A program made the translations under genes and the position numbers. From Luteitalea sp. (GTDB lineage: Bacteria; Acidobacteriota; Vicinamibacteria; Vicinamibacterales; Vicinamibacteraceae): a stretch of 24,000 bases of DNA. The notes below the pieces were generated by a model. That model was given only the letters and a program-made list of their open reading frames with translations. It was not told where the DNA came from and did not search any database. Shown here in pieces: positions 7,763 to 22,873 of this stretch (positions are counted from its first letter, which is position 1; each line of letters begins with the position of its first letter). Where the stretch lies: assembly GCA_009377605.1 (NCBI GenBank), contig WHTT01000020.1, forward strand, positions 3,394 to 27,393. Direction: 5' to 3'.

Positions 7763-7796
7763 GGTTGCAGACCACTGCTTGTTGGTGTCTGGTAGC

Positions 7797-8567
7797 TCAC
7801 GAGCGAGCTGTTGAGTGACACCGATCGAAGTCAGCTTGGGCGGACGAGGCCTCCACTCCTGGCCGAAGACGACCGACGAGGAGGAACGAGCGGGCTTCCC
7901 GCGCTTCGAGAAAAGGTCTGTTTGCGAAGATAGACACTGCCGACGGCAAATGGACGACCGGGACCCAGAGGTGAGGTGCCGGCCCCCAATCCTTCGTCAG
8001 ACCAGAAAAGCTTTCGGGCGCAACACCGGCAATCGCAAATGAAACGCCATTGATGCGTAGTGAACGGTCACCAAGCTCGAGGTCTTCGCCGAAATGCTCG
8101 CGCGCGAAGTCCGGGCTCACGACCGCCACGGGAGGCGCAGACACCACATCGTCTTTGGGCATGAGCAGCCGCCCTCGCGATGCTCGAAGACGAAGCAGCT
8201 CGAAGTAGTTCCCAGTGACGATTTCGGCCTGCACCTGTTCTCGCGTGCCGGTTGTGCTCTCCACATGCACGGCGACGCGGATGTACGCCGCGAGGCCCGT
8301 CAGCGACTGACTACGCTGCTGGAAGTCGCGAAAGTCCAGGAACGAAGTCCCTATATACGCATCGTCGGGCGTCCGCGAATAGATGCCGACGAGCTCGTGT
8401 GACTCGGGAACGTCAGGAAGCCTGAACAACAGGACATCGACCAGGTTGAGCACGGTCGCGGCCGTTCCGACGCCGAGAGCGAGTGAGACCGTCACGCCAA
8501 TCACCACGAGCGGGGTCTTGAGATAGCTCCGCACCGCGATCCGGACATCGGCCAGGAGAGTCTTCAT
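7797..8567 (-). CDS. ADOP-type permease, N-terminal fragment (TM1 plus MacB periplasmic core domain) of the same frameshift-split gene
   Basis: ATG 8567 (MKTLLADVRIAVRSYLKTP...) follows GAGGTGA; the track start is GTG 8576. It ends at TGA 7799-7797, in a different frame from the downstream fragment. Confidence 0.85.
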   Translation of the reverse strand: MKTLLADVRIAVRSYLKTPLVVIGVTVSLALGVGTAATVLNLVDVLLFRLPDVPESHELVGIYSRTPDDAYIGTSFLDFRDFQQRSQSLTGLAAYIRVAVHVESTTGTREQVQAEIVTGNYFELLRLRASRGRLLMPKDDVVSAPPVAVVSPDFAREHFGEDLELGDRSLRINGVSFAIAGVAPESFSGLTKDWGPAPHLWVPVVHLPSAVSIFANRPFLEAREARSFLLVGRLRPGVEASSAQADFDRCHSTARS

Positions 8568-8681
8568 GTGTCTCACCTCATGCGGATGAAATGGTGCCCG
8601 GCCTTGAGCCTCGATTGCCTACGACTCAACACGCTGATCTCGGTGCGTGAAAGACGCTGGCGCAGCAGATGTAGGAGCTCC

Positions 8682-8703
8682 GGCGGCGGCGAAAGCCGCA
8701 GCC
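8682..8703 (-). terminator. GC-rich hairpin with a GAAA/TTTC tetraloop abutting the M61 peptidase stop codon
   Basis: GGCGGCGGC-GAAA-GCCGCAGCC gives 8 bp with one mismatch. There is no clear U-tract. Confidence 0.4.
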
Positions 8704-10592
8704 TATCGATCGGTTGCCTTACTTGCCAACCAGGACTCCCGAAATGCTCGTTGCGCTTCGGTGAGGGTCCCCGCCTCTCGCTCGATCGGCACGATTGTTA
8801 GCCAAGGGTCCTCGGCCAGCTTCACCGACCGCTCGACTCGACCGGCACGGCTCTCGTACACGACGCGTACCAGGTCACCCGGCTTGCGCGCCGTCAGGAT
8901 ATTCGTCATCTGATCCGCAGCCGTGACCTCCTGGCCGTCAATCGAGAGAAGCACATCGTCGCGACCGATCCCCGCTTGATAGGCCGGCGAGCCCGCGCGT
9001 GGTGTTGCGCTCACGAAGACCTTGCCCTCTCGGAGCTCGACCTCCGGAAGGCCGAGAGTCGCATGGCCCGGATCCGCCTTCTGCAGGAGGAATCCGGCGC
9101 GCTCGAGAAGGGAAGCGTAGTCGATCTTCTCGGTGCCCTCGATGTAGCGATCGAAGAAGTCCGCCGCGAACTGTGCGTCCCCGCTGACTTCAGCCAATCG
9201 ATCTCGAGCGTCCGACAGCGTATACGGCTTGGCGACCAGTCCGGGCTCGGGACCGCCGGGCTTGCCGTGGGTGACCCACATCGCGCGCATGAAGTCGTCG
9301 AGGGTCACGCGTGAGTCCGTCCGGCTGCGAAGCGTGAGATCGAGGCCGAGGCCGAGCGCCTCGCCGAACGTGTAGTACGAATAGAACGTATTCTCCCAAT
9401 TCGTGCGGTCGGTCGCGACGGCACGATCGACGAGCGGCGCCAGGCGGCTCATGTCGACCGCCGACCGAAAGGCCGTTCCAGGACTGTGAAGAGCGCCGTT
9501 GATTACACTCTCCCACTGCGATACGCCTTCGACTTGCTCGACGATACCGGTGCGTATCAGGGCGAGCTTGCCGTAGTAGTTCGTGAATCCCTCGGCCAGC
9601 CACAGCTCGTCCGAGATGTTGACATCTTCGAAATCGAACGGCTCGAGCAACGCCGGCCTCACCCGCTCGACGTTCCAGGCATGGAAGAGCTCGTGCGAGG
9701 CGGTGCCAATCAACCCGGCGTACGCCTGGGCCAGGCCGCGAGACGAGGTGAGGATGGTGCTGTTTCGGTGCTCCATCCCGTCACCGCTTGCGTACGGTAG
9801 GTAGTCGGCGATGAATGTGTAGGTACCCGGCTCGAGCTCGGGCAGCTCACCAAAGATCGCACGCTGTTCGCGCACGATCTTCTGGACGTCGCTCACGAAC
9901 CGACCGAGCTCCTCGTCTGTCCCCGCATGGTGCATGGCCACCCGAATCGTCACTTCAGGACCGCCAGGCCGCGCGGAGACGTCGAACTCGCGGAGGGTAA
10001 AGGCGCTCAGCTCGGTGGGTGAGTCCATGAAGTACTGGAGGTTGGGTGCCGTGAACGTGAGCGCTTCGTCTGCGGGCAAGAGCTGCGTGGCGGCGCGCCA
10101 GTTCTTCCCGGTAGGTGGCACGAACGTGATGCGGACCGGCCGGCCTTCCAGACCACGCCCCCACATGAACGCCGCTGGCATGTTGATATGTGCATGTGTC
10201 TCGTCAATGGCCAGGTACGTGCCGTCGACACGGTCGCCAAAGATCCGATAGCTCACCTTCACCGTGCCGTCGTGCTTCGTGACGTGCCATTGATGCGGGC
10301 TCGGTCGTGTAACCGCCACCGACTCATCTCTCCCATCGGTGAAACGTTCCATGAATACGTTCTTCGCGAAGTCGTGTGCCGCGTAGCGTCCGGGCGACGC
10401 GCGGCTCATGCGCACCTCGAAGGATCCCGCAGGCACGTCGGGAAAGATCACGTCCACCTGCATCCAACGGTGCTCCGGCTCGGGAAAGGAAACCTGGTAC
10501 TGAATCGGCGCTTGCGAGCTCTGCGCCAAGCTCATCGAGCCGGCGACCAGTACGACAAGGGCGAGGAAAGAGAGCCGAAGACGGATACTCAT
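8703..10592 (-). CDS. M61 glycyl-aminopeptidase-family metallopeptidase with a C-terminal PDZ domain, secreted
   Basis: 629 aa. The signal peptide is MSIRLRLSFLALVVLVAGSMSLAQS. The zinc motif is HELFHAWN. The C-terminal PDZ-like segment is GSPAYQAGIGRDDVLLSIDGQEV. Confidence 0.9.
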   Translation of the reverse strand: MSIRLRLSFLALVVLVAGSMSLAQSSQAPIQYQVSFPEPEHRWMQVDVIFPDVPAGSFEVRMSRASPGRYAAHDFAKNVFMERFTDGRDESVAVTRPSPHQWHVTKHDGTVKVSYRIFGDRVDGTYLAIDETHAHINMPAAFMWGRGLEGRPVRITFVPPTGKNWRAATQLLPADEALTFTAPNLQYFMDSPTELSAFTLREFDVSARPGGPEVTIRVAMHHAGTDEELGRFVSDVQKIVREQRAIFGELPELEPGTYTFIADYLPYASGDGMEHRNSTILTSSRGLAQAYAGLIGTASHELFHAWNVERVRPALLEPFDFEDVNISDELWLAEGFTNYYGKLALIRTGIVEQVEGVSQWESVINGALHSPGTAFRSAVDMSRLAPLVDRAVATDRTNWENTFYSYYTFGEALGLGLDLTLRSRTDSRVTLDDFMRAMWVTHGKPGGPEPGLVAKPYTLSDARDRLAEVSGDAQFAADFFDRYIEGTEKIDYASLLERAGFLLQKADPGHATLGLPEVELREGKVFVSATPRAGSPAYQAGIGRDDVLLSIDGQEVTAADQMTNILTARKPGDLVRVVYESRAGRVERSVKLAEDPWLTIVPIEREAGTLTEAQRAFRESWLASKATDR

Positions 10593-10620
10593 AACTCAGA
10601 ACTCAGAACTCGGAACTCAA
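10593..10620. repeat. Four heptamer repeats AACTCAG AACTCAG AACTCGG AACTCAA filling the 24-nt intergenic gap
   Basis: Read directly. On the minus strand the units read (C/T)TGAGTT or CCGAGTT. The outermost unit supplies the ABC-chimera stop TGA (10619-10617). The array ends at the M61 ATG (10592). Confidence 0.8.
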
Positions 10621-11876
10621 GCAGCCCGAACCCAGTGCAGCATCTCGCGAAACGTCGCAGACTTACCCTGTACGAGCAGGCCAACACGAAAGATCCGGCC
10701 CGCCGCCCAGACGACGCCAGCCGCCGTGGCCACCGTGAGCACCACGGAGAGCAGCAGCTGCCAGAGCGGAGGTCCGGGCTCGAGCGCGAGCCGCACGAGC
10801 ATGAGAAAGGGCGTGAAGAACGGGATCAACGAAAGGCCCGCGGAGAGGGTGGTGTCAGGCGATTGCACCACCGAGAACACGAGCACATACGGGATGACGG
10901 CAATCATCATGGCCGGTGTCATCATCGTCTGAGCGTCGCGCAGATCCGTGCAGGCTGCGCCAATGGCCAGGAAAAGCGCTCCGAAGATGAGCAGTGTGAG
11001 CAAGAGGAAGACGGCGAACCAGCCCACGATTCGTGGCGCGAGCATGTCCCCGTATCCCAGGTAGCCGAGCGCCACTGCGGCGCCACCGAGATACACGACG
11101 GCGAGCACGATTGCCGCCCCCGCAGTGGCAAGCAGCTTCCCCCACATCAGCTCACTGGGCGTGACGGATCCGAGCATGACCTCCGCAATCCGGCTCATTG
11201 TTTCCTCGATCACCGCGTTGAGCAACTGAGGCGCCGTGGTCATCACGAACATGAAGAGCAGGATCGGCAGTCCAATTGCCGCACCGAAGCTCCGAAATCG
11301 GTCGACTTCAGTCGCCGGCCTGATACGACCCTGGGCATCGCGCTCGAGCAAGCCAAGCTGACGAAATGGGACCTCACGCAGCGCGGCGTCCATTCCCGCT
11401 TGGTCCACTTTCAACGCCTTGAACCGCTGGGCGCGTACCGCGCCATTGATTGTCGTCTCGAGCCACAACGGGAGTGGTTGATATGTGGGCTGGCTCGAGT
11501 AGTAGCCAACGGCTGCGGTGCTGCCGGCCGTCAGTGTGTCCGGCGGTATCTCGACGAAGGCAAAGAGATCGTCGCGACGGACCCGGTCCGAGAGCCGGCG
11601 CACCGTCATTTTCTTGTAGAGCCCGCGCTCTTCGGGTAGGTAGCCGACCTGATCGCGTGCCGCGCGCGCGTCGGATAGGCCGAGCACCTCGATGGCGCCG
11701 CGGTCCGGCAGCAGGATGTGCATGATCATCCTGAGCGTCGTGGTCTTGCCGGAACCGTTCGGGCCAATAAAGCCGTAGATCGAGCCCTTCGGCACCTCGA
11801 GCGACACATCGTCTACGGCCACGGTGTTACCGAAGCCCTTCGTGACGTTGCGGAGCACTATTGCTGGCGCGCTCAC
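10617..11876 (-). CDS. Chimeric ORF: the first ~93 aa of an ABC ATPase fused in frame to an N-terminally truncated ABC-2 (NatB-like) permease; probable deletion remnant
   Basis: The N-terminus VLRNVTKGFG...GFIGPNGSGKTTTLRMI...VGYLPEERGLYKKMTV carries Walker A and the Q-loop region. It then switches at ~aa 93-100 to permease sequence DDLFAFVEIPPD...IEETMSRIAEVMLGSVTPSELMWGKLLA plus about five TM helices. No ABC signature (LSGGQ) or Walker B is present anywhere in the ORF. Confidence 0.8.
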   Translation of the reverse strand: MSAPAIVLRNVTKGFGNTVAVDDVSLEVPKGSIYGFIGPNGSGKTTTLRMIMHILLPDRGAIEVLGLSDARAARDQVGYLPEERGLYKKMTVRRLSDRVRRDDLFAFVEIPPDTLTAGSTAAVGYYSSQPTYQPLPLWLETTINGAVRAQRFKALKVDQAGMDAALREVPFRQLGLLERDAQGRIRPATEVDRFRSFGAAIGLPILLFMFVMTTAPQLLNAVIEETMSRIAEVMLGSVTPSELMWGKLLATAGAAIVLAVVYLGGAAVALGYLGYGDMLAPRIVGWFAVFLLLTLLIFGALFLAIGAACTDLRDAQTMMTPAMMIAVIPYVLVFSVVQSPDTTLSAGLSLIPFFTPFLMLVRLALEPGPPLWQLLLSVVLTVATAAGVVWAAGRIFRVGLLVQGKSATFREMLHWVRAA

Positions 11877-11957: not shown

Positions 11958-13058
11958 TCACGGCTCGGGGGTCCACCACAGGTCGATGGGCCGCTCAGCG
12001 CGAGAGGCAAAGGGCAACGAGACCTTCCGGCCGGAGCCAGCGGACTGATAGGCGGCGAAGATGGCCTCGAGGACCGCACGCCCATCCTCGCCGGTGACGA
12101 GCGGTGGCCGGTCGTGCAACACGCAATCGACGAAATGCGCCATTTCCTGCGGAAAGCCATAATTCCAGGCCTCCTCGTAGACGGTGAACGACCAGCCCAC
12201 CGTCTCGCCGCCTTTCTCGACGGCGTAGTCGTAGCCAACCTCACTGTACGTCTCGATCGCGTTGCCGTGAAGTAAGTCGGCATACGCCACACCCTGCGAG
12301 CCGTGCACTTCGGCTCGGTCATCCATGCCGCCAAGCTTCGTCCAGCTCTCCTCAGCGAGGCCAGTCACGCCATCTTCGAGCTCGACCAGCAGGATCGCGT
12401 TGTCATCACCGCGTGTCTTTTCGTCGTGCACGCGCGTGTCCATGTGCGCGTATACCGAGGCAATCTTCGGCCGGCCCAGCATCCAGCGGAAGAACGCAAT
12501 CGCGTGGCATCCCATGTCCATCGTGACGCCACCGCCGGAGCGCGACACATCCCAGAAGTGCGAAGCATGCGGACCGTCGTGCTTTTCGGACTGTTTGATG
12601 AGTGTCGGTCGGCCCAGCGCGCCGGAATCGAGCAACTGTTTCAGGCGGACGTACTTCGGAGCGAAGCAGAGCTCCTCCGCGTACATGAGCTTGACGTTCG
12701 CTCGCCGGCAGGCGTCGATCATGCGGTCCGCTTCCTCCAGGTTCAGGCACAGCGGCTTTTCACACACGACGTGCTTGCCGGCGGCGGCAGCGTCACGTGT
12801 GATCGCGCAGTGGAGGTCGTTCGGTACGCCAATGACGACCATGTCGACCTCGTCCATGGCGAGAAGCGCCCGATAGTCGGTGACGTAGTGTGGGATCGCG
12901 TAACGTTCGCTGAACGCCTGGGCGTGGCCGGGGGTGGGGGAGGCGACCCCGAACAGCTCAGCATGCTTGCACCGCTGCAAGGCGTCCGCGTGGATGCTGG
13001 AGATGAATTGCGACCCGATCAGTCCGACCCTGACGCCCGTCTCGCGCCGATCCGTCAC
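11958..13058 (-). CDS. Gfo/Idh/MocA family NAD(P)-dependent oxidoreductase (cytoplasmic type)
   Basis: VRVGLIGSQFIS is the Rossmann N-terminus, and EKPL is a family motif (VVCEKPLCLN). The start is either GTG 13058, in a GTGA overlap with the upstream stop and with GGGAG 9 nt upstream, or GTG 13073 (track). Confidence 0.9.
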   Translation of the reverse strand: MTDRRETGVRVGLIGSQFISSIHADALQRCKHAELFGVASPTPGHAQAFSERYAIPHYVTDYRALLAMDEVDMVVIGVPNDLHCAITRDAAAAGKHVVCEKPLCLNLEEADRMIDACRRANVKLMYAEELCFAPKYVRLKQLLDSGALGRPTLIKQSEKHDGPHASHFWDVSRSGGGVTMDMGCHAIAFFRWMLGRPKIASVYAHMDTRVHDEKTRGDDNAILLVELEDGVTGLAEESWTKLGGMDDRAEVHGSQGVAYADLLHGNAIETYSEVGYDYAVEKGGETVGWSFTVYEEAWNYGFPQEMAHFVDCVLHDRPPLVTGEDGRAVLEAIFAAYQSAGSGRKVSLPFASRAERPIDLWWTPEP

Positions 13059-14413
13059 GGCGAGATCTCCCACCCTCGTCGGAAGTCTGGCTTGATGAGC
13101 GGGTCCGCCTCTGGGACGCCCTTCGCGCGCATGTTCTCGGCGTCCCAGTCGATCGTGCGGCCGGTCCGGACGGCCAGGAGACCGACCAGCAGCGCTTCCG
13201 TCAGCGTCGACGCGTACGCGAAATCCGCGAGCGCCCGGCCTTCACCCTTGCACGCGCGAATCCACTCCTGATGATGCCCTGTCTCGCCTCGAACCGGCGG
13301 ACGCGGGAGCGTGGATGGGATCGGTGCAGCGTCCACGAACTTCTTCCGCGGCAGCAACAGGAACATGTCCTCGTCTGTCTGCCCGCCATGCCACGTTCGT
13401 GTGAACAGCGTCCCCGTGGTGCCAATGACCAGCGAGCCGTTTGTCGGTATCGGCTCACCGTCGAAGAGATCTCGCGGGGGCTGTTGCTTGCTGGAGTAGA
13501 ACGTCACGGCAACCGAGGGGCGACGACCGCGCGCTGGGAAGGTGAGCTCGACGATCTCCCATTCGGGCGGCCCCTCCGCCGTGCGGCGCGACGAGTCCTT
13601 CAGCCGCGCCGAGACCGGCACGCCCAGCTCGAGGGCCCAGAAGGCGGGGTCGAGGTTGTGCACGCCCATATCGCCCATTGCGCCGGTGCCGAAGTCGTAC
13701 CATCCTCGCCACACGAAGGGCACATATGCGGGATGGTAGGGGCGCGACGCCGCCGGTCCAAGCCACAGGTCCCAATCGAGCGCTTTCGGCACCGGCGGCC
13801 TGTCTTGGGGGCGCTCCACGCCTTGTGGCCACCACTCGGCCGGGCGATCGGTCCACACGTGAATCTCGGTCACCTCTCCAATGACCCCCGCTCGAATGGT
13901 CTCGACGGCGCGCCGCGAGCCCTCGAGCGCATGCCCCTGCGTTCCCATCTGCGTCACGACACCCGCCTCGCGCGCGACGTTTCTCATCATGCGAGCTTCC
14001 CAGATCGTGCGCGTCAGCGGCTTCTCGCAGTACACGTGCAGTCCCCGGCGCATGGCGGCAATCGATGCGGCCGCGTGGACGTGATCCGGCGTGCTCACCA
14101 CGACCGCGTCGAGCGCCTTTTCCGTATCGAGCATGCGGCGGAAGTCGCGGTAGCGGCGGACCTGCGGGTAGCGGGCAAACGTCTTGGCCGCCTGTCTCTC
14201 GTCGACATCGCACAACGCGACGATTTGCTCGCTGCTCACGCCGGCAAGATTATCCGCGCCCCGGCCGCCAGCACCGATGATGCCGATCGCGAGCTGGTCG
14301 CTCGGTGCCACGCGGCGACGGCCAGGTTGGGCTAGGGGACGGCCCGCAACAGAAACGCTCGCCGCGGCAAGCGCCGCGCCGCGCAACAACTCTCGCCGCG
14401 TGAGATCAGCCAT
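13055..14413 (-). CDS. Gfo/Idh/MocA family oxidoreductase with a Tat signal peptide (periplasmic type)
   Basis: MADLTRRELLRGAALAAASVSVAG is the Tat motif. It is followed by IGIIGAGGRG and YCEKPL. ATG 14413 has AGGTG 5 nt upstream; the track start is GTG 14416. The gene lies 15 nt downstream of the selenoprotein-candidate stop. Confidence 0.9.
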   Translation of the reverse strand: MADLTRRELLRGAALAAASVSVAGRPLAQPGRRRVAPSDQLAIGIIGAGGRGADNLAGVSSEQIVALCDVDERQAAKTFARYPQVRRYRDFRRMLDTEKALDAVVVSTPDHVHAAASIAAMRRGLHVYCEKPLTRTIWEARMMRNVAREAGVVTQMGTQGHALEGSRRAVETIRAGVIGEVTEIHVWTDRPAEWWPQGVERPQDRPPVPKALDWDLWLGPAASRPYHPAYVPFVWRGWYDFGTGAMGDMGVHNLDPAFWALELGVPVSARLKDSSRRTAEGPPEWEIVELTFPARGRRPSVAVTFYSSKQQPPRDLFDGEPIPTNGSLVIGTTGTLFTRTWHGGQTDEDMFLLLPRKKFVDAAPIPSTLPRPPVRGETGHHQEWIRACKGEGRALADFAYASTLTEALLVGLLAVRTGRTIDWDAENMRAKGVPEADPLIKPDFRRGWEISP

Positions 14414-14428
14414 CACTGCACCTGAGCG

Positions 14429-15076
14429 CTAAGAGGCCTCGAGACCCGCAAGAATCTGCTCGACATACTGGGCCTCGGGCAGCGCTCCCAGAATCTCGCC
14501 ATGGCCGTTGACGATGGTCTTTGGCACACCTGTGACCTGATACTGCCGCACCAAGTCCGGGTAATCGACCGCGGAAATGGAAGACGCTCGGATGAGGGGG
14601 CTTTCGAGCGCGAGGCGGTTTGCCAGGGCGACCGCCCGGGGACAGTGAGGTCAGGTCGGCGTCGAGAAGACCTGTAAGTGGAGTGCCTCGGTGAGCCCAA
14701 CCAGCCGCTGCCGTGTCGTCGCCGAGAGCCCGGAATCGTTCGCGGACACGGCAAGGATGGCATCGAGCAGCGACACCAGCTCGTATCCTTCCGGCGCCCC
14801 GTAGAAGCGGACTCCGGGATCGGTCTCCCCAACAACGGCAACGGCCGGCGCGCGCTCGATGCCCATCGTCTCGGCCAGTCCTTTGTCGAGCAGCAGGTCG
14901 TGCTCGTCGACGGTCACCAACGGGCTGGCCGCCGCCAGGCCGTCGAGGATGCCCTTGGTTGCAGGGCAGCTTTCGCAGTCGAGGGACTGCGTGAAGAAGG
15001 TGAGGCGGACAGGCGACTGGAGCGATTGCAGCCGGTCGGCGAGGACTCGTGCATCCGGATCGGAAAAGTACGCCAC
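14429..15076 (-). CDS. Two-domain thioredoxin-fold protein disulfide oxidoreductase (PDO/glutaredoxin-like) with in-frame TGA 14653-14651 read as selenocysteine (UPHC motif)
   Basis: The track ORF 14651-15076 stops at ...LHLQVFSTPT-TGA. The same frame continues as PHCPRAVALANRLALESPLIRASSISAVDYPDLVRQYQVTGVPKTIVNGHGEILGALPEAQYVEQILAGLEAS and ends at TAG 14431-14429. The N-domain has CESC (aa 34-37). A SECIS-like hairpin lies 11 nt after the TGA. Confidence 0.75.
14623..14639 (-). promoter_or_regulatory. Candidate bacterial SECIS element (17-nt hairpin with a GGUC apical loop)
   Basis: The RNA reads 5'-CCGGGC GGUC GCCCUGG-3': a 6-bp stem, one bulged U and loop GGUC. The loop starts 18 nt after the UGA. 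In E. coli fdhF, as I recall it, the minimal SECIS is GGUUGCA GGUC UGCACC with the loop at +19. Confidence 0.6.
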
Positions 15077-15108: not shown

Positions 15109-15137
15109 TTGACAGCTTGTGAATCTTTTCACATCAT
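15109..15137 (+). promoter_or_regulatory. Candidate sigma70-type promoter for the act operon (TTGACA-N17-CATCAT)
   Basis: A perfect -35 hexamer lies at 15109-15114. A 4/6 match to the -10 consensus lies at 15132-15137. The site is ~150 nt upstream of the actA ATG. Confidence 0.35.
15118..15133. promoter_or_regulatory. Perfect TGTGA-N6-TCACA palindrome (Crp/Fnr-family type binding-site candidate)
   Basis: TGTGA ATCTTT TCACA, read directly. It sits in the 211-bp divergent region between the selenoprotein operon (start 15076) and actA (15288), inside the spacer of the candidate promoter. Confidence 0.5.
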
Positions 15138-15287: not shown

Positions 15288-15947
15288 ATGAGCCAAATCT
15301 TTCCGAAGAGTGCGAACGCGTGGGCCCGGTTCTCACTGTTCGGCTTGCTGCTGCTCATCGTCCTAGGGGCGTGGGCGATTCTCCTTCTGCAGCGGTCGGA
15401 CTTCGTCACAGCGGCCCGAGCCAACGTGCAGCAGCCGATTCAGTTCAGCCATCTTCACCACGTCGGCGGCGAGGGATTCGACTGCCGCTACTGTCACACA
15501 TCGGTGGAGAAATCGGCATTTGCCGACATCCCGTCGACCAAGATCTGTATGAATTGCCATTCGCAGATCTGGCTGGAGAGCCCATATCTGGAGCCTGTGC
15601 GCGAGAGCTTCAAGACCGGGCAGTCGATCGAGTGGATTCGCGTGCACGACTTGCCCGACTTCGTCTATTTCAACCACAGCATCCACGTGAACAAAGGCGT
15701 TGGTTGTGAGACCTGCCATGGCCGCGTCGACGAGATGCCCGCCATGCAACAGGTGGCCTCGCTACAGATGGAGTGGTGCTTGGATTGCCACCGCCGGCCG
15801 GAGCAATATCTCCGGCCCCGCAGCCAAGTCACCGTGATGGGTTACGAGCCGGAAGGCGACCAGCTCGAGATCGGTCGGCGCTTGAAGCAGGAGTACAAGG
15901 TGCTGGATGCGCAGACGCTGACGTCCTGCTCGACGTGCCATCGGTAA
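15288..15947 (+). CDS. actA: Alternative Complex III subunit ActA, membrane-anchored pentaheme cytochrome c
   Basis: Has an N-terminal TM helix and five CxxCH motifs (CRYCH, CMNCH, CETCH, CLDCH, CSTCH). It is first in an actABCDEF-ordered cluster. Confidence 0.9.
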   Translation: MSQIFPKSANAWARFSLFGLLLLIVLGAWAILLLQRSDFVTAARANVQQPIQFSHLHHVGGEGFDCRYCHTSVEKSAFADIPSTKICMNCHSQIWLESPYLEPVRESFKTGQSIEWIRVHDLPDFVYFNHSIHVNKGVGCETCHGRVDEMPAMQQVASLQMEWCLDCHRRPEQYLRPRSQVTVMGYEPEGDQLEIGRRLKQEYKVLDAQTLTSCSTCHR

Positions 15948-15968
15948 CAAGTTCTTGAAGCGAGAACG

Positions 15969-18900
15969 ATGTCCAACCTCGATCCATCGGCCCTCCGGGC
16001 CCGGCTCGCCTCGACCGACGGTCCCACGTATTGGCGCAGTCTCGAAGAGCTCGCTGAGACCGAGGAGTTCCGGCGGCATCTCCAGCGTGAGTTCCCGGCC
16101 ACGGCGGCCGAGCTGAGCGACCCGCAAGGGCGGCGGACGTTCCTCAAGTTGATGGGGGCGTCGATGGCGCTTGCTGGTGTGACTGCGTGCACGCGCCAGC
16201 CCGCTGAGAAGATCATTCCGTATGTGAATGCGCCCGAAGAGCTCGTGCCCGGCAAGCCGTTGTTCTACGCGACGGCGCTGCCGCACGGCGGCTTCGCGAC
16301 ACCCGTCCTGGTGGAGAGCCACGAGGGGCGGCCCACGAAGGTCGAGCCCAACCGGGATCACCCGGCCACGCGCGGCGGGACGGACGTCTTTGCGCAGGGC
16401 TCCATCCTCACGCTCTACGACCCCGACCGATCGCGCGCCATCAAGGAATACGGTGAGATTCGCTCGTGGGATGTGTTCGTGTCGCGGATGCAGACGGCAA
16501 TCGCGGCGCAGAAGGCGGCGCAGGGGAGCGGGTTCCGCTTGCTGACCGAGTCCGTCACGTCGCCGACGCTCGGAAGGCAAATCGAGGAGCTGCTCAAGAC
16601 GCTGCCGGGCGCGAAGTGGGTGCAGTACGACGCCGTCTCGCGCGACAACGCTCGCGCCGGTGCCCGGGCAGTGTTCGGCCGTGACGTCGAGACACGCTAT
16701 CGACTCGAGCAGGCGGACATGATCCTGTCGCTCGACGCGGACTTCATCGAGGAGGGGCCCGGGCGCCTTGCCTACGCGCGGGCGTTCACCGATCGGCGAC
16801 GGTTGATCGACGGCCAGACGGACATGAACCGCTTGTACGTCGTGGAGAGCCGGCTGACCAACACCGGCGCCAAGGCGGATCATCGGTTGGCGGTGCGTGC
16901 GTCGGACGTCGAGCACGTGGCGCGGGCGGTCGCGGCGACGCTCGGTGTCGCTGGCGTGGCCGCATCGGCGTTGCCGAGCGGTGTAGAGGAGCCATGGGTC
17001 GTCGCGCTGGCGCGTGATCTCTCCGCGCACCGCGGGCGCTCGGTCGTCGTGGCCGGCGACCATCAACCGGCGGTCGTCCACCAACTCGCCCACGTCATGA
17101 ACGCGGCGCTCGGCAACGTGGGGCAGACCGTGGAGTACACGGCAGCGGTGGAGATGCGCCCGCAGATCCAGGTCGAGGCGCTGCGTGAGCTCGCCGGAGA
17201 AATGGCCGCCGGCACGGTGGAGGTGCTGGTCATGATCGGCGTCAATCCCGTCTACACGGCGCCCGTCGACCTCCAGTTCGGGGAGCGGCTGAAGAAGGTC
17301 CCGGTAGCCGTGCACGTGGGGCTGTTCGAGGACGAAACGGCGCCGTACTGTCGGTGGCACGTGCCGGAGGCGCACCCGCTCGAGGCGTGGAGTGATCTGC
17401 GGGCTTTCGACGGGAGTGTGACCATCTGTCAGCCGCTCATCGCGCCGCTCTACGAGAACAACAAGTCGGCCCACGAAGTGGTGGTTGCCTTCACGAGCAA
17501 CCCGACGCAAGGAGGGGCGGAGATCGTCAAGGCGTTCTGGCAGGCGGAGGTCACGACCCCGTCGGGTCGGTTCGGCAGCCTCACCAACGTCGATGGCCAG
17601 CCCTTTCCCAGCTTCGACGCTTTCTGGCGCCAGGCGCTCCATGACGGATTCGTTGTCGGGAGCGCCCTGCCGGCCGCGGAGGTGACGACCTCCGGACCGG
17701 TGCCGCCCCCCTCACGTCCAGGGAACACCTCGGCCGTCGAGATCACCTTCAGCGCGGATCCAACCGTGTACGACGGGCGCTTCGCGAACAACGGCTGGTT
17801 GCAAGAGTGCCCCAAGCCATTCAGTAAAGTGGTTTGGGACAACATCGTCGTCATGAGCCCTGCGATGCGGGAGCGATTGGGGCTCCCAAGGCCGGACGTG
17901 CTCGAGCAGTGGGCGCCGTTGGTGACCGTGAGATGGAAGGGGCGGGAGATCACTGGTCCGGTTCGCGAGCAGCCGGGCCATCCGGATCATTCGATCAATG
18001 TGCAGCTCGGATACGGACGCACGCGCGCGGGCCAGGTCGGGAACGGTGTCGGCTACAACGCGTATCGCATTCGCACTGCCGACGAGCCCTGGTTCGGGAC
18101 GGGCGCGGAGATCGACTCGACGGGGGAGTCGTATCGCCTCGCGGCCACGCAGATGCACTTCCAGATGGAAGGGCGCAATCTCGTGCGCGGCACGTCGCTG
18201 ACGCAGTATCAAGGAGATCCGGCGGTCGCCCAGCACCTCGAGCACGTGCCGCCGTACGAGGAGACGCTGCACGGTAACGAGTGGAAGTACGACGAGGGCT
18301 ACGCCTGGGGCATGGCCATCGACCTCAACGCGTGCACCGGGTGCAACGCGTGCGTGGTCGCCTGCGTGGCGGAGAACAACATCTCCGTTGTCGGCAAGCA
18401 CGAGGTGGTCATGGGCCGCGAGATGCACTGGATTCGGATCGACAACTACTACGAGGGCAGTCCGGACGGCCCGCACGCGGTCGAGACGCAGCCCGTGCTG
18501 TGCATGCAGTGTGAGAACGCGCCCTGCGAGGTGGTGTGCCCCGTGGCGGCGACGACGCATAGCAGCGAAGGCCTCAACGACATGGTCTACAACCGCTGCG
18601 TGGGCACGCGGTACTGCAGCAACAACTGCCCGTACAAGGTGCGGCGGTTCAATTTCTATCTCTACTCGGACTGGAACACGCCGACGCTCAAGATGGCGCG
18701 GAATCCCGACGTCACGGTGCGCAGCCGCGGTGTGATGGAGAAATGCACCTATTGCGTGCAGCGTATCAACGCCGGGAAGATCCAGGCAGAGCTCGAGGAT
18801 CGTGTCGTGCGCGATGGCGAGATCGTCACCGCCTGCGAGTCCGCCTGCCCGACGCGCGCCATTACGTTCGGCAACATCAACGATCCCGAGAGCCGCGTGG

Positions 18901-19043
18901 CCAAGCTCAAAAAGGAGCCGCGAAACTACGGGCTCCTGGAGGATCTGAACACGCGGCCGCGGACCACGTATCTCGCGGTGGTACGGAATCCGAATCCGGA
19001 GCTGGCGCCGGAGGAAGAGCCGGCTGCGGGGCACCATGGATAG
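15969..19043 (+). CDS. actB: Alternative Complex III subunit ActB (molybdopterin-oxidoreductase-like domain fused to a 4-cluster FeS domain), with Tat motif
   Basis: 1024 aa. YWRSLEELAETEEFRRHLQREFP is followed by RRTFLKLMGASMALAG. C-terminal ferredoxin-type motifs are CTGCNACVVAC, CMQCENAPCEVVCP, CVGTRYCSNNCPYKVRRFN and CTYCVQR...ACESACP. Confidence 0.92.
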   Translation: MSNLDPSALRARLASTDGPTYWRSLEELAETEEFRRHLQREFPATAAELSDPQGRRTFLKLMGASMALAGVTACTRQPAEKIIPYVNAPEELVPGKPLFYATALPHGGFATPVLVESHEGRPTKVEPNRDHPATRGGTDVFAQGSILTLYDPDRSRAIKEYGEIRSWDVFVSRMQTAIAAQKAAQGSGFRLLTESVTSPTLGRQIEELLKTLPGAKWVQYDAVSRDNARAGARAVFGRDVETRYRLEQADMILSLDADFIEEGPGRLAYARAFTDRRRLIDGQTDMNRLYVVESRLTNTGAKADHRLAVRASDVEHVARAVAATLGVAGVAASALPSGVEEPWVVALARDLSAHRGRSVVVAGDHQPAVVHQLAHVMNAALGNVGQTVEYTAAVEMRPQIQVEALRELAGEMAAGTVEVLVMIGVNPVYTAPVDLQFGERLKKVPVAVHVGLFEDETAPYCRWHVPEAHPLEAWSDLRAFDGSVTICQPLIAPLYENNKSAHEVVVAFTSNPTQGGAEIVKAFWQAEVTTPSGRFGSLTNVDGQPFPSFDAFWRQALHDGFVVGSALPAAEVTTSGPVPPPSRPGNTSAVEITFSADPTVYDGRFANNGWLQECPKPFSKVVWDNIVVMSPAMRERLGLPRPDVLEQWAPLVTVRWKGREITGPVREQPGHPDHSINVQLGYGRTRAGQVGNGVGYNAYRIRTADEPWFGTGAEIDSTGESYRLAATQMHFQMEGRNLVRGTSLTQYQGDPAVAQHLEHVPPYEETLHGNEWKYDEGYAWGMAIDLNACTGCNACVVACVAENNISVVGKHEVVMGREMHWIRIDNYYEGSPDGPHAVETQPVLCMQCENAPCEVVCPVAATTHSSEGLNDMVYNRCVGTRYCSNNCPYKVRRFNFYLYSDWNTPTLKMARNPDVTVRSRGVMEKCTYCVQRINAGKIQAELEDRVVRDGEIVTACESACPTRAITFGNINDPESRVAKLKKEPRNYGLLEDLNTRPRTTYLAVVRNPNPELAPEEEPAAGHHG

Positions 19044-19070
19044 GCGAGGACCTGCTGACGAGGTCGAACC

Positions 19071-20459
19071 TTGCTAGAGAAAGCAAAGCACTTCGATCCC
19101 CCCGAGACGCGCTTCATCGCGCCGGGGCATACGTTTGGCAGCATCACCGAGAAGATCACGTCGGCGGTCTTGACCAAGCGAACGCCGATCAGCTGGTTCA
19201 TCGGCTTCGCGGTCGGCTTCGGGTTGCTGCAGGCGCTGATGTTGGGGGCGACCTGGCTCTTGATGCGCGGCGTCGGGCTGTGGGGGATCAATCAACCGGC
19301 GGGCTGGGGCTTTGCCATCATCAACTTCGTCTGGTGGATTGGCATCGGCCACGCGGGCACGCTCATCTCGGCGATCCTGCTCCTCTTCAACCAGAAGTGG
19401 CGGATGTCCATCAGTCGCGCCGCCGAAGCCATGACGATCTTCGCGGTGATGTGCGCAGGGCTGTTCCCCATCTTGCACACCGGCCGCCCATGGCTTGCCG
19501 CCTACTGGCTGTTTCCATACCCGAACGCCATGTCCCTGTGGCCGAACTTCCGCAGTCCGCTCATCTGGGACGTGTTCGCGGTGTCGACGTATTTCACGGT
19601 CTCGCTGGTGTTCTGGTACACAGGCCTCATTCCAGACCTGGCCTCTCTGCGTGATCGCACGAAGCATCGCCTCTTGCAACTGTTCTACGGGGTGCTCTCG
19701 CTGGGCTGGCGCGGGTCGGCGCGCGACTGGCAGCGCTATGAGCTCGCATCGCTCCTCTTGGCTGGCCTTTCGACGCCGCTGGTCCTCTCCGTGCACACCG
19801 TGGTGAGCTTCGACTTCGCGACCAGCCTCATCCCGGGCTGGCACGCGACGATCTTTCCGCCGTATTTCGTTGCGGGCGCCATCTACGCAGGCTTTGCGAT
19901 GGTGCTGACGCTGATGATTCCCTTGCGGCGCATTTACGGCTTCGAGGACTTCGTCACCATTCGGCACCTCGACAACATGGCGAAGGTCATGTTGGCCACC
20001 GGGCTGATCGTGTTCTACGGCTATCAGATGGAGGCGTTCTTCGCTTGGTACAGCGCCAACCCGTACGAGTGGTTCATGATGACGAACCGGTGGACGGGTC
20101 CCTATGCATACCTGTACTGGACGCTGATCTTCTGCAACGGCGTGGCGCCGCAGGCGCTGTGGTTCAAGAGGTTTCGCACGAAGCCGCTTCGGCTGTTCGG
20201 CATTTGTATGTTCGTCAACGTCGGCATGTGGCTCGAGCGCTTCATCATCGTGCCGACCAGCCTCAGTCGAGACTTCCTGCCCTCCTCGTGGGGCATGTAT
20301 CACGGCACGGTGTGGGACTGGATGATCTTTGTCGGCACGATGGGCTTGTTCCTGACCTGCTTCTATCTGTTCATTCGCGTGCTGCCGATGCTGTCCATCT
20401 TCGAGATGCGCACGCTGTCGCCGGCGGCGACGCCGAAAGAGGAGTCCAGCCATGTCTGA
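19071..20459 (+). CDS. actC: Alternative Complex III subunit ActC (NrfD/PsrC-like integral membrane quinol-binding subunit)
   Basis: 462 aa and polytopic, with NrfD-like motifs (WGxxIxxFVWWIGIGHAGTLISA). The TTG start at 19071 has GAGG 7 nt upstream. Confidence 0.9.
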   Translation: MLEKAKHFDPPETRFIAPGHTFGSITEKITSAVLTKRTPISWFIGFAVGFGLLQALMLGATWLLMRGVGLWGINQPAGWGFAIINFVWWIGIGHAGTLISAILLLFNQKWRMSISRAAEAMTIFAVMCAGLFPILHTGRPWLAAYWLFPYPNAMSLWPNFRSPLIWDVFAVSTYFTVSLVFWYTGLIPDLASLRDRTKHRLLQLFYGVLSLGWRGSARDWQRYELASLLLAGLSTPLVLSVHTVVSFDFATSLIPGWHATIFPPYFVAGAIYAGFAMVLTLMIPLRRIYGFEDFVTIRHLDNMAKVMLATGLIVFYGYQMEAFFAWYSANPYEWFMMTNRWTGPYAYLYWTLIFCNGVAPQALWFKRFRTKPLRLFGICMFVNVGMWLERFIIVPTSLSRDFLPSSWGMYHGTVWDWMIFVGTMGLFLTCFYLFIRVLPMLSIFEMRTLSPAATPKEESSHV

Positions 20460-21018
20460 GGACGCCACGCGCGCGGCGGAGACGGGGGCGTCACTCTACG
20501 GCCTGATCGCGGAGTTCGAGACGGTCGACAAGCTGCTGGCGGCCGCACGGCGCGTGCACACGGAGGGCTTCCGCAAGATCGACGCCTACACGCCTGCGCC
20601 GGTCCATGGGCTGGCCGAGGCGATGGGCTACAACGATCGACGGCTCTCGCCGCTCACGTTGGCCGGCGGAGTCGCCGGCATGCTGGCCGGCTTCATGCTG
20701 TGTTACTGGACGTCGGTCATCGATTACCCGATCAACACCGGCGGGCGGCCGCTCAACAGTTGGCCTGCGTTCATCGTGCCGACGTTCGAGACGACAATCC
20801 TGTTTGCCGCACTGAGCTGCTTCGTTGGCCTGATCGTGCTCTGCGGATTTCCGCAGCCGTACCATCCGGTCTTCAACGTGCCGGCGGTGCGGGAGCGCGC
20901 CACGAGCAGCGGCATGTTTCTGGCGATCGAGGCGGAGGATCCACGATTCGATCGCACGGCCACGCGGCAGTTGCTCGAGACCGCAGGTGCGAAGGACGTG
21001 TATGAAGTCGAGGCGTGA
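20452..21018 (+). CDS. actD: Alternative Complex III subunit ActD (DUF3341-type membrane protein)
   Basis: 188 aa. Starts YGLIAEFETVDKLLAAARRVHTEGFRKIDAYTP and has two TM helices. The ATG overlaps the actC stop by 8 nt. Confidence 0.88.
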   Translation: MSEDATRAAETGASLYGLIAEFETVDKLLAAARRVHTEGFRKIDAYTPAPVHGLAEAMGYNDRRLSPLTLAGGVAGMLAGFMLCYWTSVIDYPINTGGRPLNSWPAFIVPTFETTILFAALSCFVGLIVLCGFPQPYHPVFNVPAVRERATSSGMFLAIEAEDPRFDRTATRQLLETAGAKDVYEVEA

Positions 21019-21021
21019 TCT

Positions 21022-21699
21022 GTGTCTACCTGTGTCCATCTACGGATCAACCCATTTGTGCTCATGCGTCGACGACTGTTGATGGGCGCCGTGCTCGTCG
21101 CTGTGGTCGTGGGCGGCGTGGCCTGTCGACAGGATATGCACGACACGCCGCGCTTCGAGCCACTCGAGGAGAGCGACTTCTTCTCGGACAAGCGCTCGGC
21201 GCGCCCCCTGCCGGAGGGGACCGTCGCGCGCGGCGAGCTGCGGGCCGACGAGGCCTTTTACACCGGAAAGGTGAACAATCAACCAGTGGCCGAGCTGCCC
21301 ATGCCTCTGACGCGCGACCTCGTGGAACGCGGGCGCGAGCGCTTCGATATCTATTGCTCGCCGTGCCACGGGCACACAGGTGAGGGACAAGGGATGGTCG
21401 TCAGGCGCGGCTTCAAGGAGGCGGCATCGTTTCACGACCCGCGGTTGCGCGGCATGCCCGTGGGCTACTTCGTGGATGTGATGACCAATGGGTTCGGCCA
21501 GATGCCGGACTACAGAACGCAGGTCACCCCGCGCGATCGTTGGGCGATTGCCGCGTATATCCGCGCGCTGCAGTTGAGCCGCAGCGCCACCGCCGATGAC
21601 GTGCCCGCCGAAGAGCGGCAAAAGCTGGAGACCGGCCAGGCCCCCGATGCTTCCAGCTCGTCGCACCAGGCGGAGGAGGAACCGACCTCCCATGAGTGA
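21022..21699 (+). CDS. actE: Alternative Complex III subunit ActE, monoheme cytochrome c
   Basis: Has a single CSPCH motif and a downstream Met ligand region (GFGQMPDY). The start is GTG 21022 (GAGG 8 nt upstream) or ATG 21064, which gives MRRRLLMGAVLVAVVVGGVAC, a possible lipoprotein signal. Confidence 0.85.
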   Translation: MSTCVHLRINPFVLMRRRLLMGAVLVAVVVGGVACRQDMHDTPRFEPLEESDFFSDKRSARPLPEGTVARGELRADEAFYTGKVNNQPVAELPMPLTRDLVERGRERFDIYCSPCHGHTGEGQGMVVRRGFKEAASFHDPRLRGMPVGYFVDVMTNGFGQMPDYRTQVTPRDRWAIAAYIRALQLSRSATADDVPAEERQKLETGQAPDASSSSHQAEEEPTSHE

Positions 21700-22873
21700 G
21701 ATTCGCCCGGAGTCGTTCCAGGTTCCACCCGGCGTCGACCGCATCCAGCGCGCGGCACTCGGGCTCGGCGTCGTCGGCCTGTTGCTGACGATCGTTGGTG
21801 CGTTCGTCGACACGGAGCAGTTCTACCGTTCGTATCTGCTCGGCTATATCTTCACGCTCGGCGTTCCGATGGGCTGCCTCGCCCTGCTGATGATCCAACA
21901 TCTCACAGGCGGCGGCTGGGCCGTCTCGACGCGGCGCACGCTCGAGGCGGCCGCGCGGACCATCCCCTTCATGGCGTTGCTCTTCGTGCCGATCGCGTTC
22001 GGGCTATCGCACCTCTATGAATGGACGCACGCCGAGCTCGTGGCGACCGACAGGGTCCTGCAGTGGAAGGCGCCGTATTTGAACGCACCGTTCTTTCTCG
22101 TTCGCGCGGCGATCTATTTCGCCGTGTGGACCGCCATCGCGCTGCTGCTGAGCAAATGGTCGCGCGAGCAGGATACGACCGGCCGCGACGACGTGCGGCT
22201 GCGCATGGTGAGTGGGCCCGGTATCCTCGTCTTTGGGCTAACGATCACCTTGGCCTCGGTCGATTGGGTGATGTCGCTCGATCCTCATTGGTACTCGACG
22301 ATCTTCGGGCTCCTCTTCATGGTGAGCGAAGGCCTGTCCGCGCTGGCCTTCGTCATCCTCATGACGTTCTTCTTGAGCCGTACGCCCGAGATGAGCCGTG
22401 TGCTCACGCCGAAGAAGTTCCACGATCTCGGCAAGCTGCTGCTTGCCTTCGTGATGCTCTACGCGTATCTGGGCTTCTCCCAATTCCTGCTGATCTGGTC
22501 GGCGAACCTGCCGGAAGAAGTCGGCTACTATCTCATTCGGGCGCGCGAGCGTTGGCAGTGGCTCAGCCTGCTCGTGATTGTCGGGCACTTCGCCTTCCCG
22601 TTCTGTCTGCTGCTGCTGCGCGATCTCAAGCGTCACGCGAGCCGCCTCGCTCTGCTGGCCATCATCATCCTCGCGATGCGCTTCCTCGAGACCTTTTGGC
22701 TCGTGGTCCCCAACTTTGGTGATCCGGCCACGTTGCATTGGCTGGATGTCACGACCGCCGTCGGTATCGTGGGCTTGTGGCTCGGGGCATTCTGCTGGAA
22801 CCTGAAGGGACGCGCGCTCTTGCCGGTCGGCGATCCGTACCTGGAGGAGGCTTTGGCCGATGGCCACCACTGA
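21692..22873 (+). CDS. actF: Alternative Complex III subunit ActF (second NrfD-like membrane subunit)
   Basis: ATG 21692 (MSEIRPESFQVPPGVDRIQ...) has GGAGGAGGA ~11 nt upstream and overlaps the actE stop (ATGAGTGA). The protein is polytopic. The track start 21596 is an Arg-rich extension inside actE and is rejected. Confidence 0.88.
   Translation: MSEIRPESFQVPPGVDRIQRAALGLGVVGLLLTIVGAFVDTEQFYRSYLLGYIFTLGVPMGCLALLMIQHLTGGGWAVSTRRTLEAAARTIPFMALLFVPIAFGLSHLYEWTHAELVATDRVLQWKAPYLNAPFFLVRAAIYFAVWTAIALLLSKWSREQDTTGRDDVRLRMVSGPGILVFGLTITLASVDWVMSLDPHWYSTIFGLLFMVSEGLSALAFVILMTFFLSRTPEMSRVLTPKKFHDLGKLLLAFVMLYAYLGFSQFLLIWSANLPEEVGYYLIRARERWQWLSLLVIVGHFAFPFCLLLLRDLKRHASRLALLAIIILAMRFLETFWLVVPNFGDPATLHWLDVTTAVGIVGLWLGAFCWNLKGRALLPVGDPYLEEALADGHH

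Follow-up and report, generated by a model that had tools for sequence, protein, structure and literature searches.

Known selenoproteins and related oxidoreductases

Bacterial selenoproteins in which selenocysteine (Sec) takes the place of the first Cys of a CxxC motif include a family, TIGR02187 or 'AhpF N-terminal domain homolog', that has been known since 2004 and is listed among the UxxC selenoprotein families; a 2006 survey recorded it in Carboxydothermus hydrogenoformans and Symbiobacterium thermophilum. These first examples (ABB15282.1 in C. hydrogenoformans) come from hosts that are thermophilic anaerobes or microaerophiles, and the NCBIfam model of the family, 'PDO_seleno_TRX', carries 'seleno' in its very name. 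The protein disulfide oxidoreductases (PDOs) of thermophiles deposited in the PDB (Pyrococcus furiosus PDO 1A8L, 1J08, 2YWM and 2HLS) consist of two thioredoxin folds, each with a CxxC, together with a conserved cis-Pro loop, and all of them use Cys. The known redox partner of these thermophile PDOs is NADPH thioredoxin reductase. Homologous tandem thioredoxin folds form the N-terminal domain of AhpF (1HYU, 1ZYN), where the redox CxxC lies in the second fold; in AhpF they are fused to FAD/NADH domains, in a thioredoxin-reductase-like design of ~520 aa. To our knowledge, the first fold of the AhpF N-terminal domain has no CxxC. In Escherichia coli fdhF, the SECIS is a hairpin inside the open reading frame right after the UGA, and the G-U of its GGUC apical loop stands 23-24 nt from the U of the UGA.

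We analysed a stretch of 24,000 nucleotides from a Luteitalea sp. metagenome-assembled genome (contig WHTT01000020.1), hereafter the window. Our results strongly suggest that it encodes a 215-aa cytoplasmic oxidoreductase of the PDO or AhpF-N-terminal-domain type, in which Sec occupies the N-terminal Cys position of the second-domain CxxC. The gene resembles the known seleno-PDO family in its fit to the family model, in the UxxC position of Sec, in its two-fold architecture and in the kind of bacterial SECIS found within the reading frame. It differs in its host, which belongs to the Vicinamibacteria, aerobic soil Acidobacteriota, and in its genomic context, with alternative complex III (ACIII) divergent upstream and Gfo/Idh/MocA and M61 peptidase genes downstream. 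Since the family is known and both the UxxC arrangement and the in-frame SECIS are standard, the gene is a mis-annotated further member of that family and represents neither a new family nor a new mechanism. What is new here is that public annotation truncates the gene and that its Sec form sits in an aerobic soil lineage.

A two-domain gene with an in-frame TGA

The gene lies on the minus strand and begins with a GTG start codon at 15076, from which 141 codons lead to a TGA at 14653-14651 (codon 142). The same frame stays open for 73 more codons past this TGA and ends at a TAG at 14431-14429. The read-through translation runs through LQVFSTPT, the TGA and PHCPRAVALA to VTGVPKTIVNG, with VFSTPT-TGA-PHCPRAV corresponding to residues 136-149 and VTGVPKTIVNG to residues 181-191. 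The following features were recognized, with the evidence for each given in brackets.

14429..15076, minus strand: predicted complete selenoprotein gene, 215 aa (translation, TIGR02187.2 score and full-length 1a8l alignment)
14966..14977, minus strand: CxxC motif C34-E-S-C37 of the N-terminal thioredoxin fold (translation; C34 and C37 at least 90% conserved in the family alignment)
14651..14653, minus strand: in-frame TGA, predicted selenocysteine codon U142 (Cys column in homologues; recurrence of the TGA)
14642..14653, minus strand: putative redox-active U-P-H-C (residues 142-145) of the second thioredoxin fold (equivalent to CPYC of P. furiosus PDO; CPHC/CPYC in Cys forms)
14516..14533, minus strand: cis-Pro loop T182-G-V-P185-K-T of the second thioredoxin fold (aligns with AVPK of 1a8l)

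Scored with U replaced by C, the read-through product reaches 221.5 bits against TIGR02187.2, an NCBIfam equivalog model with a cutoff of 185, over residues 8-209 and model positions 4-207 of 209. Residues 4-212 align end to end with P. furiosus PDO (1a8l, 3.8e-31); alignments with 1a8l, 1j08 and 2ywm span this same range at 1e-28 to 1e-31, and 2HLS was also aligned. In these structure alignments the TGA coincides with the leading Cys of the C-terminal CPYC, and VP184-185 coincides with the cis-Pro loop, within which G183, V184, P185 and K186 are invariant across the family alignment. Judged from the sequence, the protein comprises two tandem thioredoxin folds with a CxxC-type motif in each (CESC and UPHC) and a cis-Pro loop in the second, as in the thermophile PDOs; those exceed it by ~10 residues and have an insertion behind helix 1 of domain 2. 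Matches to the Pfam families Thioredoxin_3, Glutaredoxin and Thioredoxin are confined to residues 130-210, and the single-fold glutaredoxin family PF00462 covers only residues 136-191 with 36 bits; the protein has two domains, and its fit to the PDO model is much better. The AhpF N-terminal domain structures are matched at E 1e-8 to 1e-9. AhpF itself was considered and rejected: the protein has only 215 aa and no FAD/NADH domains, and it scores 62.7 bits against TIGR03140 (cutoff 502.9); the score against TIGR03143 is 72.4 bits (cutoff 687.65).

Public annotation of the gene is inconsistent and truncated: the window gene and all four of its closest relatives are on record as fragments of 141-142 aa, named either 'hypothetical' or 'AhpF' and in some cases accompanied by an additional orphan ORF. 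Specifically, the GenBank record of the window gene is the 141-aa 'hypothetical protein GEV06_08760 [Luteitalea sp.]' (P0001), JGI names a truncated relative (P0011) 'alkyl hydroperoxide reductase subunit AhpF', and at another locus (L002) the part after the TGA is annotated as a separate ORF of 88 aa (6451-6717). The JGI name is wrong, given the length of 215 aa and scores against the AhpF models that fall well short of the cutoffs. The original prediction of a Sec-containing, two-domain PDO/glutaredoxin-like protein thus started from an accurate description of the gene: its coordinates and sequence features (CESC, UPHC, 215 aa, TAG) were all reproduced on retranslation, its domain assignment is borne out by the TIGR02187.2 score and the full-length 1A8L alignment, and the truncated product that it expected from ordinary gene calling is what the public records contain. 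Its appeal to Sec at the N-terminal Cys of CxxC as an established bacterial pattern also agrees with the listing of this family among UxxC selenoproteins. A scan of the window for other in-frame TGA codons flanked by high GC3 on both sides returned only antisense frames of the ACIII genes, without a redox motif.

Conservation and selection around the TGA codon

Searching databases with the product retrieved the 141-aa fragment, four relatives of 141-142 aa and many full-length homologues of 210-230 aa. In all 15 full-length homologues aligned, Cys is invariant at the column of the TGA. The four truncated relatives (79-84% identical) all end at the same FSTPT. Their DNA, taken from independent NCBI, JGI and Logan assemblies and in every case syntenic with the window, has TGA at the same codon (4/4), followed by an open frame reading UPHCPRAV, VTGVPKTIVNG and ILGALPEAQ. 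In ten pairwise comparisons (Nei-Gojobori), dN/dS was 0.10-0.29 for the 71 codons after the TGA and 0.12-0.28 for the 141 codons before it, and substitutions cluster at third codon positions in both parts. Because both the dN/dS values and the third-position pattern match those of the upstream part, we conclude that the part after the TGA is translated.

These observations bear directly on the simplest reading of the locus, namely that the TGA is a genuine stop and the gene a pseudogene or a truncated one-domain protein, with the 73 downstream codons a decaying remnant. Every automatic annotation gives this stop, and TGA ends more genes of the window than any other stop codon. However, 29 genomes or contigs keep the downstream frame intact, and its dN/dS is the same as that of the upstream part. 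Conservation extends to the catalytic xxC, the cis-Pro loop and the remainder of the fold, and an independent second product would lack a start codon, none being present between the TGA and PHCP. A pseudogene is effectively excluded, because the downstream part is under the same selection as the upstream part, and we regard a genuine stop as extremely improbable. Still less probability, indeed next to none, attaches to an assembly or sequencing error that turned TGC or TGT into TGA. The source is a metagenome-assembled genome, and a MacB/FtsX-like gene at 6086-8576 of the window is split by a frameshift; against this, the independent assemblies from NCBI, JGI and Logan share the TGA, as do 24 species-representative genomes, closed chromosomes among them; closed Vicinamibacterales chromosomes with the TGA form are OZ220718.1, OY761475.2, OZ242205.1 and OZ253576.1. 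It is this recurrence of the same TGA across assemblies that excludes an error.

To place the codon in the family as a whole, one genome per GTDB species was scanned, which gave 80 homologous loci, and the motif was located in 72 of them. Among these 72 species-representative genomes, the codon at the Sec column is TGA in 24, TGC in 25 and TGT in 23; over all genomes and contigs, TGA occurs in 29 (the window and 28 others) and TGC or TGT in 48. In a rough neighbour-joining tree, drawn without support values, an Acidobacteriota clade composed mostly of Vicinamibacteria holds 24 Sec forms and five nested Cys forms, and further Sec forms stand separately among Cys relatives in one Ignavibacteria MAG, one Zixibacteria MAG and two Anaerolineae MAGs. 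As Cys forms are nested in the Sec clade and separate Sec lineages exist elsewhere, Sec and Cys have been exchanged several times, the pattern expected for a real Sec/Cys pair. Three checks named with the original prediction turned out in its favour: a redox Cys aligns with the TGA in every one of the full-length homologues aligned, the four syntenic relatives keep the TGA and an intact downstream frame under purifying selection, and TGA alternates with TGC and TGT across the family. One Sec-form PDO from a MAG labelled Betaproteobacteria (L019) is nested in the Acidobacteriota clade, adjoining L018, which suggests mis-binning or lateral transfer.

A SECIS-type hairpin downstream of the TGA

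The stretch that follows the TGA contains a candidate recoding signal, numbered here with the U of the UGA as 1.

14623..14640, minus strand: SECIS-type hairpin (local fold, bSECIS constraints and comparison between genomes)

In the window the stem is formed by C14-G31, C15-G30, a C16/U29 mismatch, G17-C28, G18-C27, G19-C26 and C20-G25, that is, 4+2 pairs, and is closed by a GGUC tetraloop (G21-G22-U23-C24) at a UGA-to-loop spacing of 17 nt, with a local minimum free energy (MFE) of -9.4 kcal/mol. The published bSECIS model asks for an apical loop 3-9 nt long that has a G in its first two positions, for a UGA-to-loop distance of 16-37 nt and for an MFE of at most -7.5 kcal/mol; the window hairpin agrees with the model in all four respects. 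As in fdhF, the hairpin is inside the reading frame right after the UGA and presents GGUC in its apical loop, with the loop G-U at 22-23 nt from the U of the UGA as against 23-24 in fdhF. The window hairpin differs in its shorter stem (six pairs) and in having no evident equivalent of the bulged U17, and most relatives of the window gene differ further in carrying a GGUCA pentaloop. Specifically, in most of the Sec forms compared (L002, L005-L032), Ser AGC follows Ala-Val and yields a perfect 6-bp stem with a GGUCA pentaloop; in the window's clade, Ala GCC stands there instead, with a register shift, a GGUC tetraloop and the C/U stem mismatch. In the two Anaerolineae forms (L040, L053), the hairpin appears to have moved a few nucleotides downstream.

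Folded as a single sequence, the 60 nt after the UGA, a GC-rich stretch, are no more stable than shuffles (z = 0.13), so that support for the hairpin comes from comparison between genomes. Both groups encode Ala-Val at the loop, yet GGTC[ACG] is present there in 24 of the 29 TGA forms as against 6 of the 48 Cys forms, and the six-pair helix (columns 15-20 with 26-31) has standard pairs in 80.5% of cells in the 29 Sec forms compared with 52.1% in the 48 Cys forms; in both contrasts the Sec forms are phylogenetically clustered and the samples thus non-independent. Divergent TGA forms show compensatory stem variants (CCAAGC/GCTTGG in L025, CCAGTC/GACTGG in L027 and GCGAGC/GCTCGC in L064), and formal covariation is modest, with a double-sided change in three cells. 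When five close relatives are compared, invariant four-fold-degenerate sites form their longest run of the whole gene at codons 146-151, where the hairpin lies, while ~63% of such sites elsewhere in the gene are variable. The SECIS-like hairpin that the original prediction had placed at the right distance from the TGA is accordingly recovered, with 17 nt spacing, agreement with the bSECIS model and pairing favoured in TGA forms. An Rfam search of the whole window gave no match; Rfam holds no bacterial SECIS family.

The hairpin also helps to weigh the possibility that the UGA is decoded as Cys or another standard residue, either by a tRNASec-like, opal-suppressing tRNACys of the selC* type or by near-cognate read-through. 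According to the literature, some anaerobic bacteria have a selC* tRNACys(UCA) that reads opal as Cys, and Acidobacteria commonly possess unusual allo-tRNAs resembling tRNASec; the reports of selC* tRNAs themselves, however, concern Firmicutes, Thermodesulfobacteria, Nitrospirae and Proteobacteria and do not include Acidobacteria. Recoding to Cys is also at odds with a hairpin whose GGUC loop is of the canonical SelB type and stands at the canonical distance, and with membership in an accepted Sec family, and a TGA with a hairpin that served merely to insert Cys would bring no obvious gain over TGC. On balance, we consider such decoding highly unlikely and retain Sec as the residue at position 142.

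A genome-wide reassignment of TGA can be rejected: of 17 genes checked in the window, 12 terminate at TGA as an ordinary stop. Components of the Sec machinery were sought close to the gene: ARAGORN found no tRNA-Sec in the window or in 28 Sec-type loci, and tblastn with E. coli SelD, SelA and SelB, using approximate query sequences, gave no match in the window and 85 fetched loci. A 94-nt 'tRNA-Arg (tcg)' called by ARAGORN at one locus (L011, 12295-12388), in GC-rich sequence ~1.9 kb downstream of the Sec codon, has no Rfam tRNA match and is probably a false positive.

Genomic neighbourhood

The genes around the PDO gene were assigned with Pfam.

13055..14416, minus strand: Gfo/Idh/MocA oxidoreductase with a twin-arginine signal (MADLTRRELLRGAA) (PF01408, PF19051)
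11958..13073, minus strand: second Gfo/Idh/MocA oxidoreductase, overlapping the first by 19 nt (PF01408, PF22725, PF02894)
15288..22873, plus strand: divergent ACIII operon with multihaem ActA, ActB, NrfD-type ActC, ActD, monohaem ActE and putative ActF (Pfam)

The first Gfo/Idh/MocA gene begins 12-15 nt past the PDO stop and no terminator-like site was seen between the two genes, an arrangement in which they are probably co-transcribed. The N-terminus of the first Gfo/Idh/MocA protein, MADLTRRELLRGAALAAASVSVAG, corresponds to a twin-arginine export signal (14330-14416, minus strand), so that this protein is probably periplasmic; the PDO has no signal peptide. The same divergent ACIII arrangement is found in many Acidobacteriota loci. 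By contrast, the Gfo/Idh/MocA pair follows the PDO gene in L001-L003 only, the close clade of the window. The majority of Acidobacteriota loci (L005, L008, L010-L014, L017, L022, L025 and others) have as the next gene one that encodes an M61 glycyl aminopeptidase with a PDZ domain, which is the most widely conserved neighbour of the PDO gene and has its window copy at 8703-10592. Compared across loci, the Gfo/Idh/MocA genes are an insertion between the PDO and M61 genes in the window's clade only. The context described in the original prediction, with two Gfo/Idh/MocA genes after the PDO gene and ACIII divergent to it, therefore holds for the window itself, where Pfam finds both elements; the Gfo/Idh/MocA pairing is confined to its close clade. 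No gene for a thioredoxin reductase or a peroxiredoxin (including ahpC) was found in the window.

Several further observations concern neighbouring genes. The MacB/FtsX-type permease at 6086-8576 (minus strand) is present as two ORFs (7797-8576 and 6086-7762) with a frameshift near 7800-7830; relatives have a single protein of 827-831 aa at the same position, and the split in the window reflects an indel in the assembly or else a true pseudogene. An ORF of 419 aa at 10617-11876 (minus strand) fuses part of an ABC ATPase domain (profile positions 2-95 of 137) directly with an ABC-2 permease domain; no homologue of it was found between the second Gfo gene and M61 in L001 or L002, and it may have arisen as an artefact of fusion or by insertion. 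In the divergent intergenic region upstream of ACIII, a sigma-70-like element at 15109-15137 (plus strand), TTGACA, 17 nt and CATCAT, agrees with the consensus at 10/12 positions, a consensus match only.

A model for Sec insertion and redox function

In the model that we propose, a ribosome arriving at UGA-142 would meet the hairpin 11-28 nt downstream, whose GGUC apical loop would recruit SelB-GTP-Sec-tRNASec; Sec would then be inserted without termination, and translation would run on to the TAG at 14431-14429. The codon, its alignment with Cys, the selection on the downstream part, the conservation of the hairpin in TGA forms and the family membership were all observed in this analysis, while decoding by SelB and the identity of reductant and substrate are suggested by analogy with known systems. 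In the chemistry that PDO, the AhpF N-terminal domain and other UxxC selenoproteins suggest by analogy, the selenolate of Sec-142, positioned where helix 1 of the second thioredoxin fold begins and facing cis-Pro185, would attack substrate disulfides, and Cys-145 would resolve the mixed intermediate, leaving a selenenylsulfide. Re-reduction would fall to a thioredoxin-reductase-like flavoprotein encoded elsewhere. The protein, which has a CxxC in its first fold as well, may work like the AhpF N-terminal domain and pass electrons from a flavoprotein on to a client of the peroxiredoxin type.

Compatible with Sec insertion is a dual output of the gene, in which scarce selenium would leave a 141-aa CESC domain with a function of its own and the locus would work as a selenium-responsive switch. 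Bacterial UGA recoding is only partly efficient, so that some truncated product must arise, and the truncated part keeps the conserved CxxC. Conversely, the 1a8l alignment puts the truncation inside the second fold, past its first beta strand, and the product would therefore carry an unfolded tail; moreover, the gene is no different in this respect from other UxxC selenoproteins. We thus give a functional switch a very slight probability.

Probable selenocysteine use in aerobic soil Acidobacteriota

The literature links the use of Sec mostly with anaerobes, and the prevalence of the Sec form in a lineage of aerobic type thus runs mildly against the trend; a literature search on Sec use in Vicinamibacteria or Luteitalea found nothing relevant. 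Our results place a Sec-dependent redox enzyme in the Vicinamibacteria, abundant soil Acidobacteriota with aerobic-type respiratory complexes. With TGA forms exceeding Cys forms by 24 to 5 in the sampled Acidobacteriota clade, the supply of selenium may be of importance to these soil bacteria. It is conceivable, if rather unlikely, that the Sec form is both ancestral and prevailing in Vicinamibacteria and related Acidobacteriota, and that its position between ACIII and the M61 peptidase could mean a dedicated client rather than general thiol-disulfide housekeeping. Were this so, a dominant aerobic soil lineage would be an unrecognised and systematically mis-annotated selenocysteine user, and the dedicated client would be, for example, a respiratory or proteolytic partner kept reduced by the PDO.
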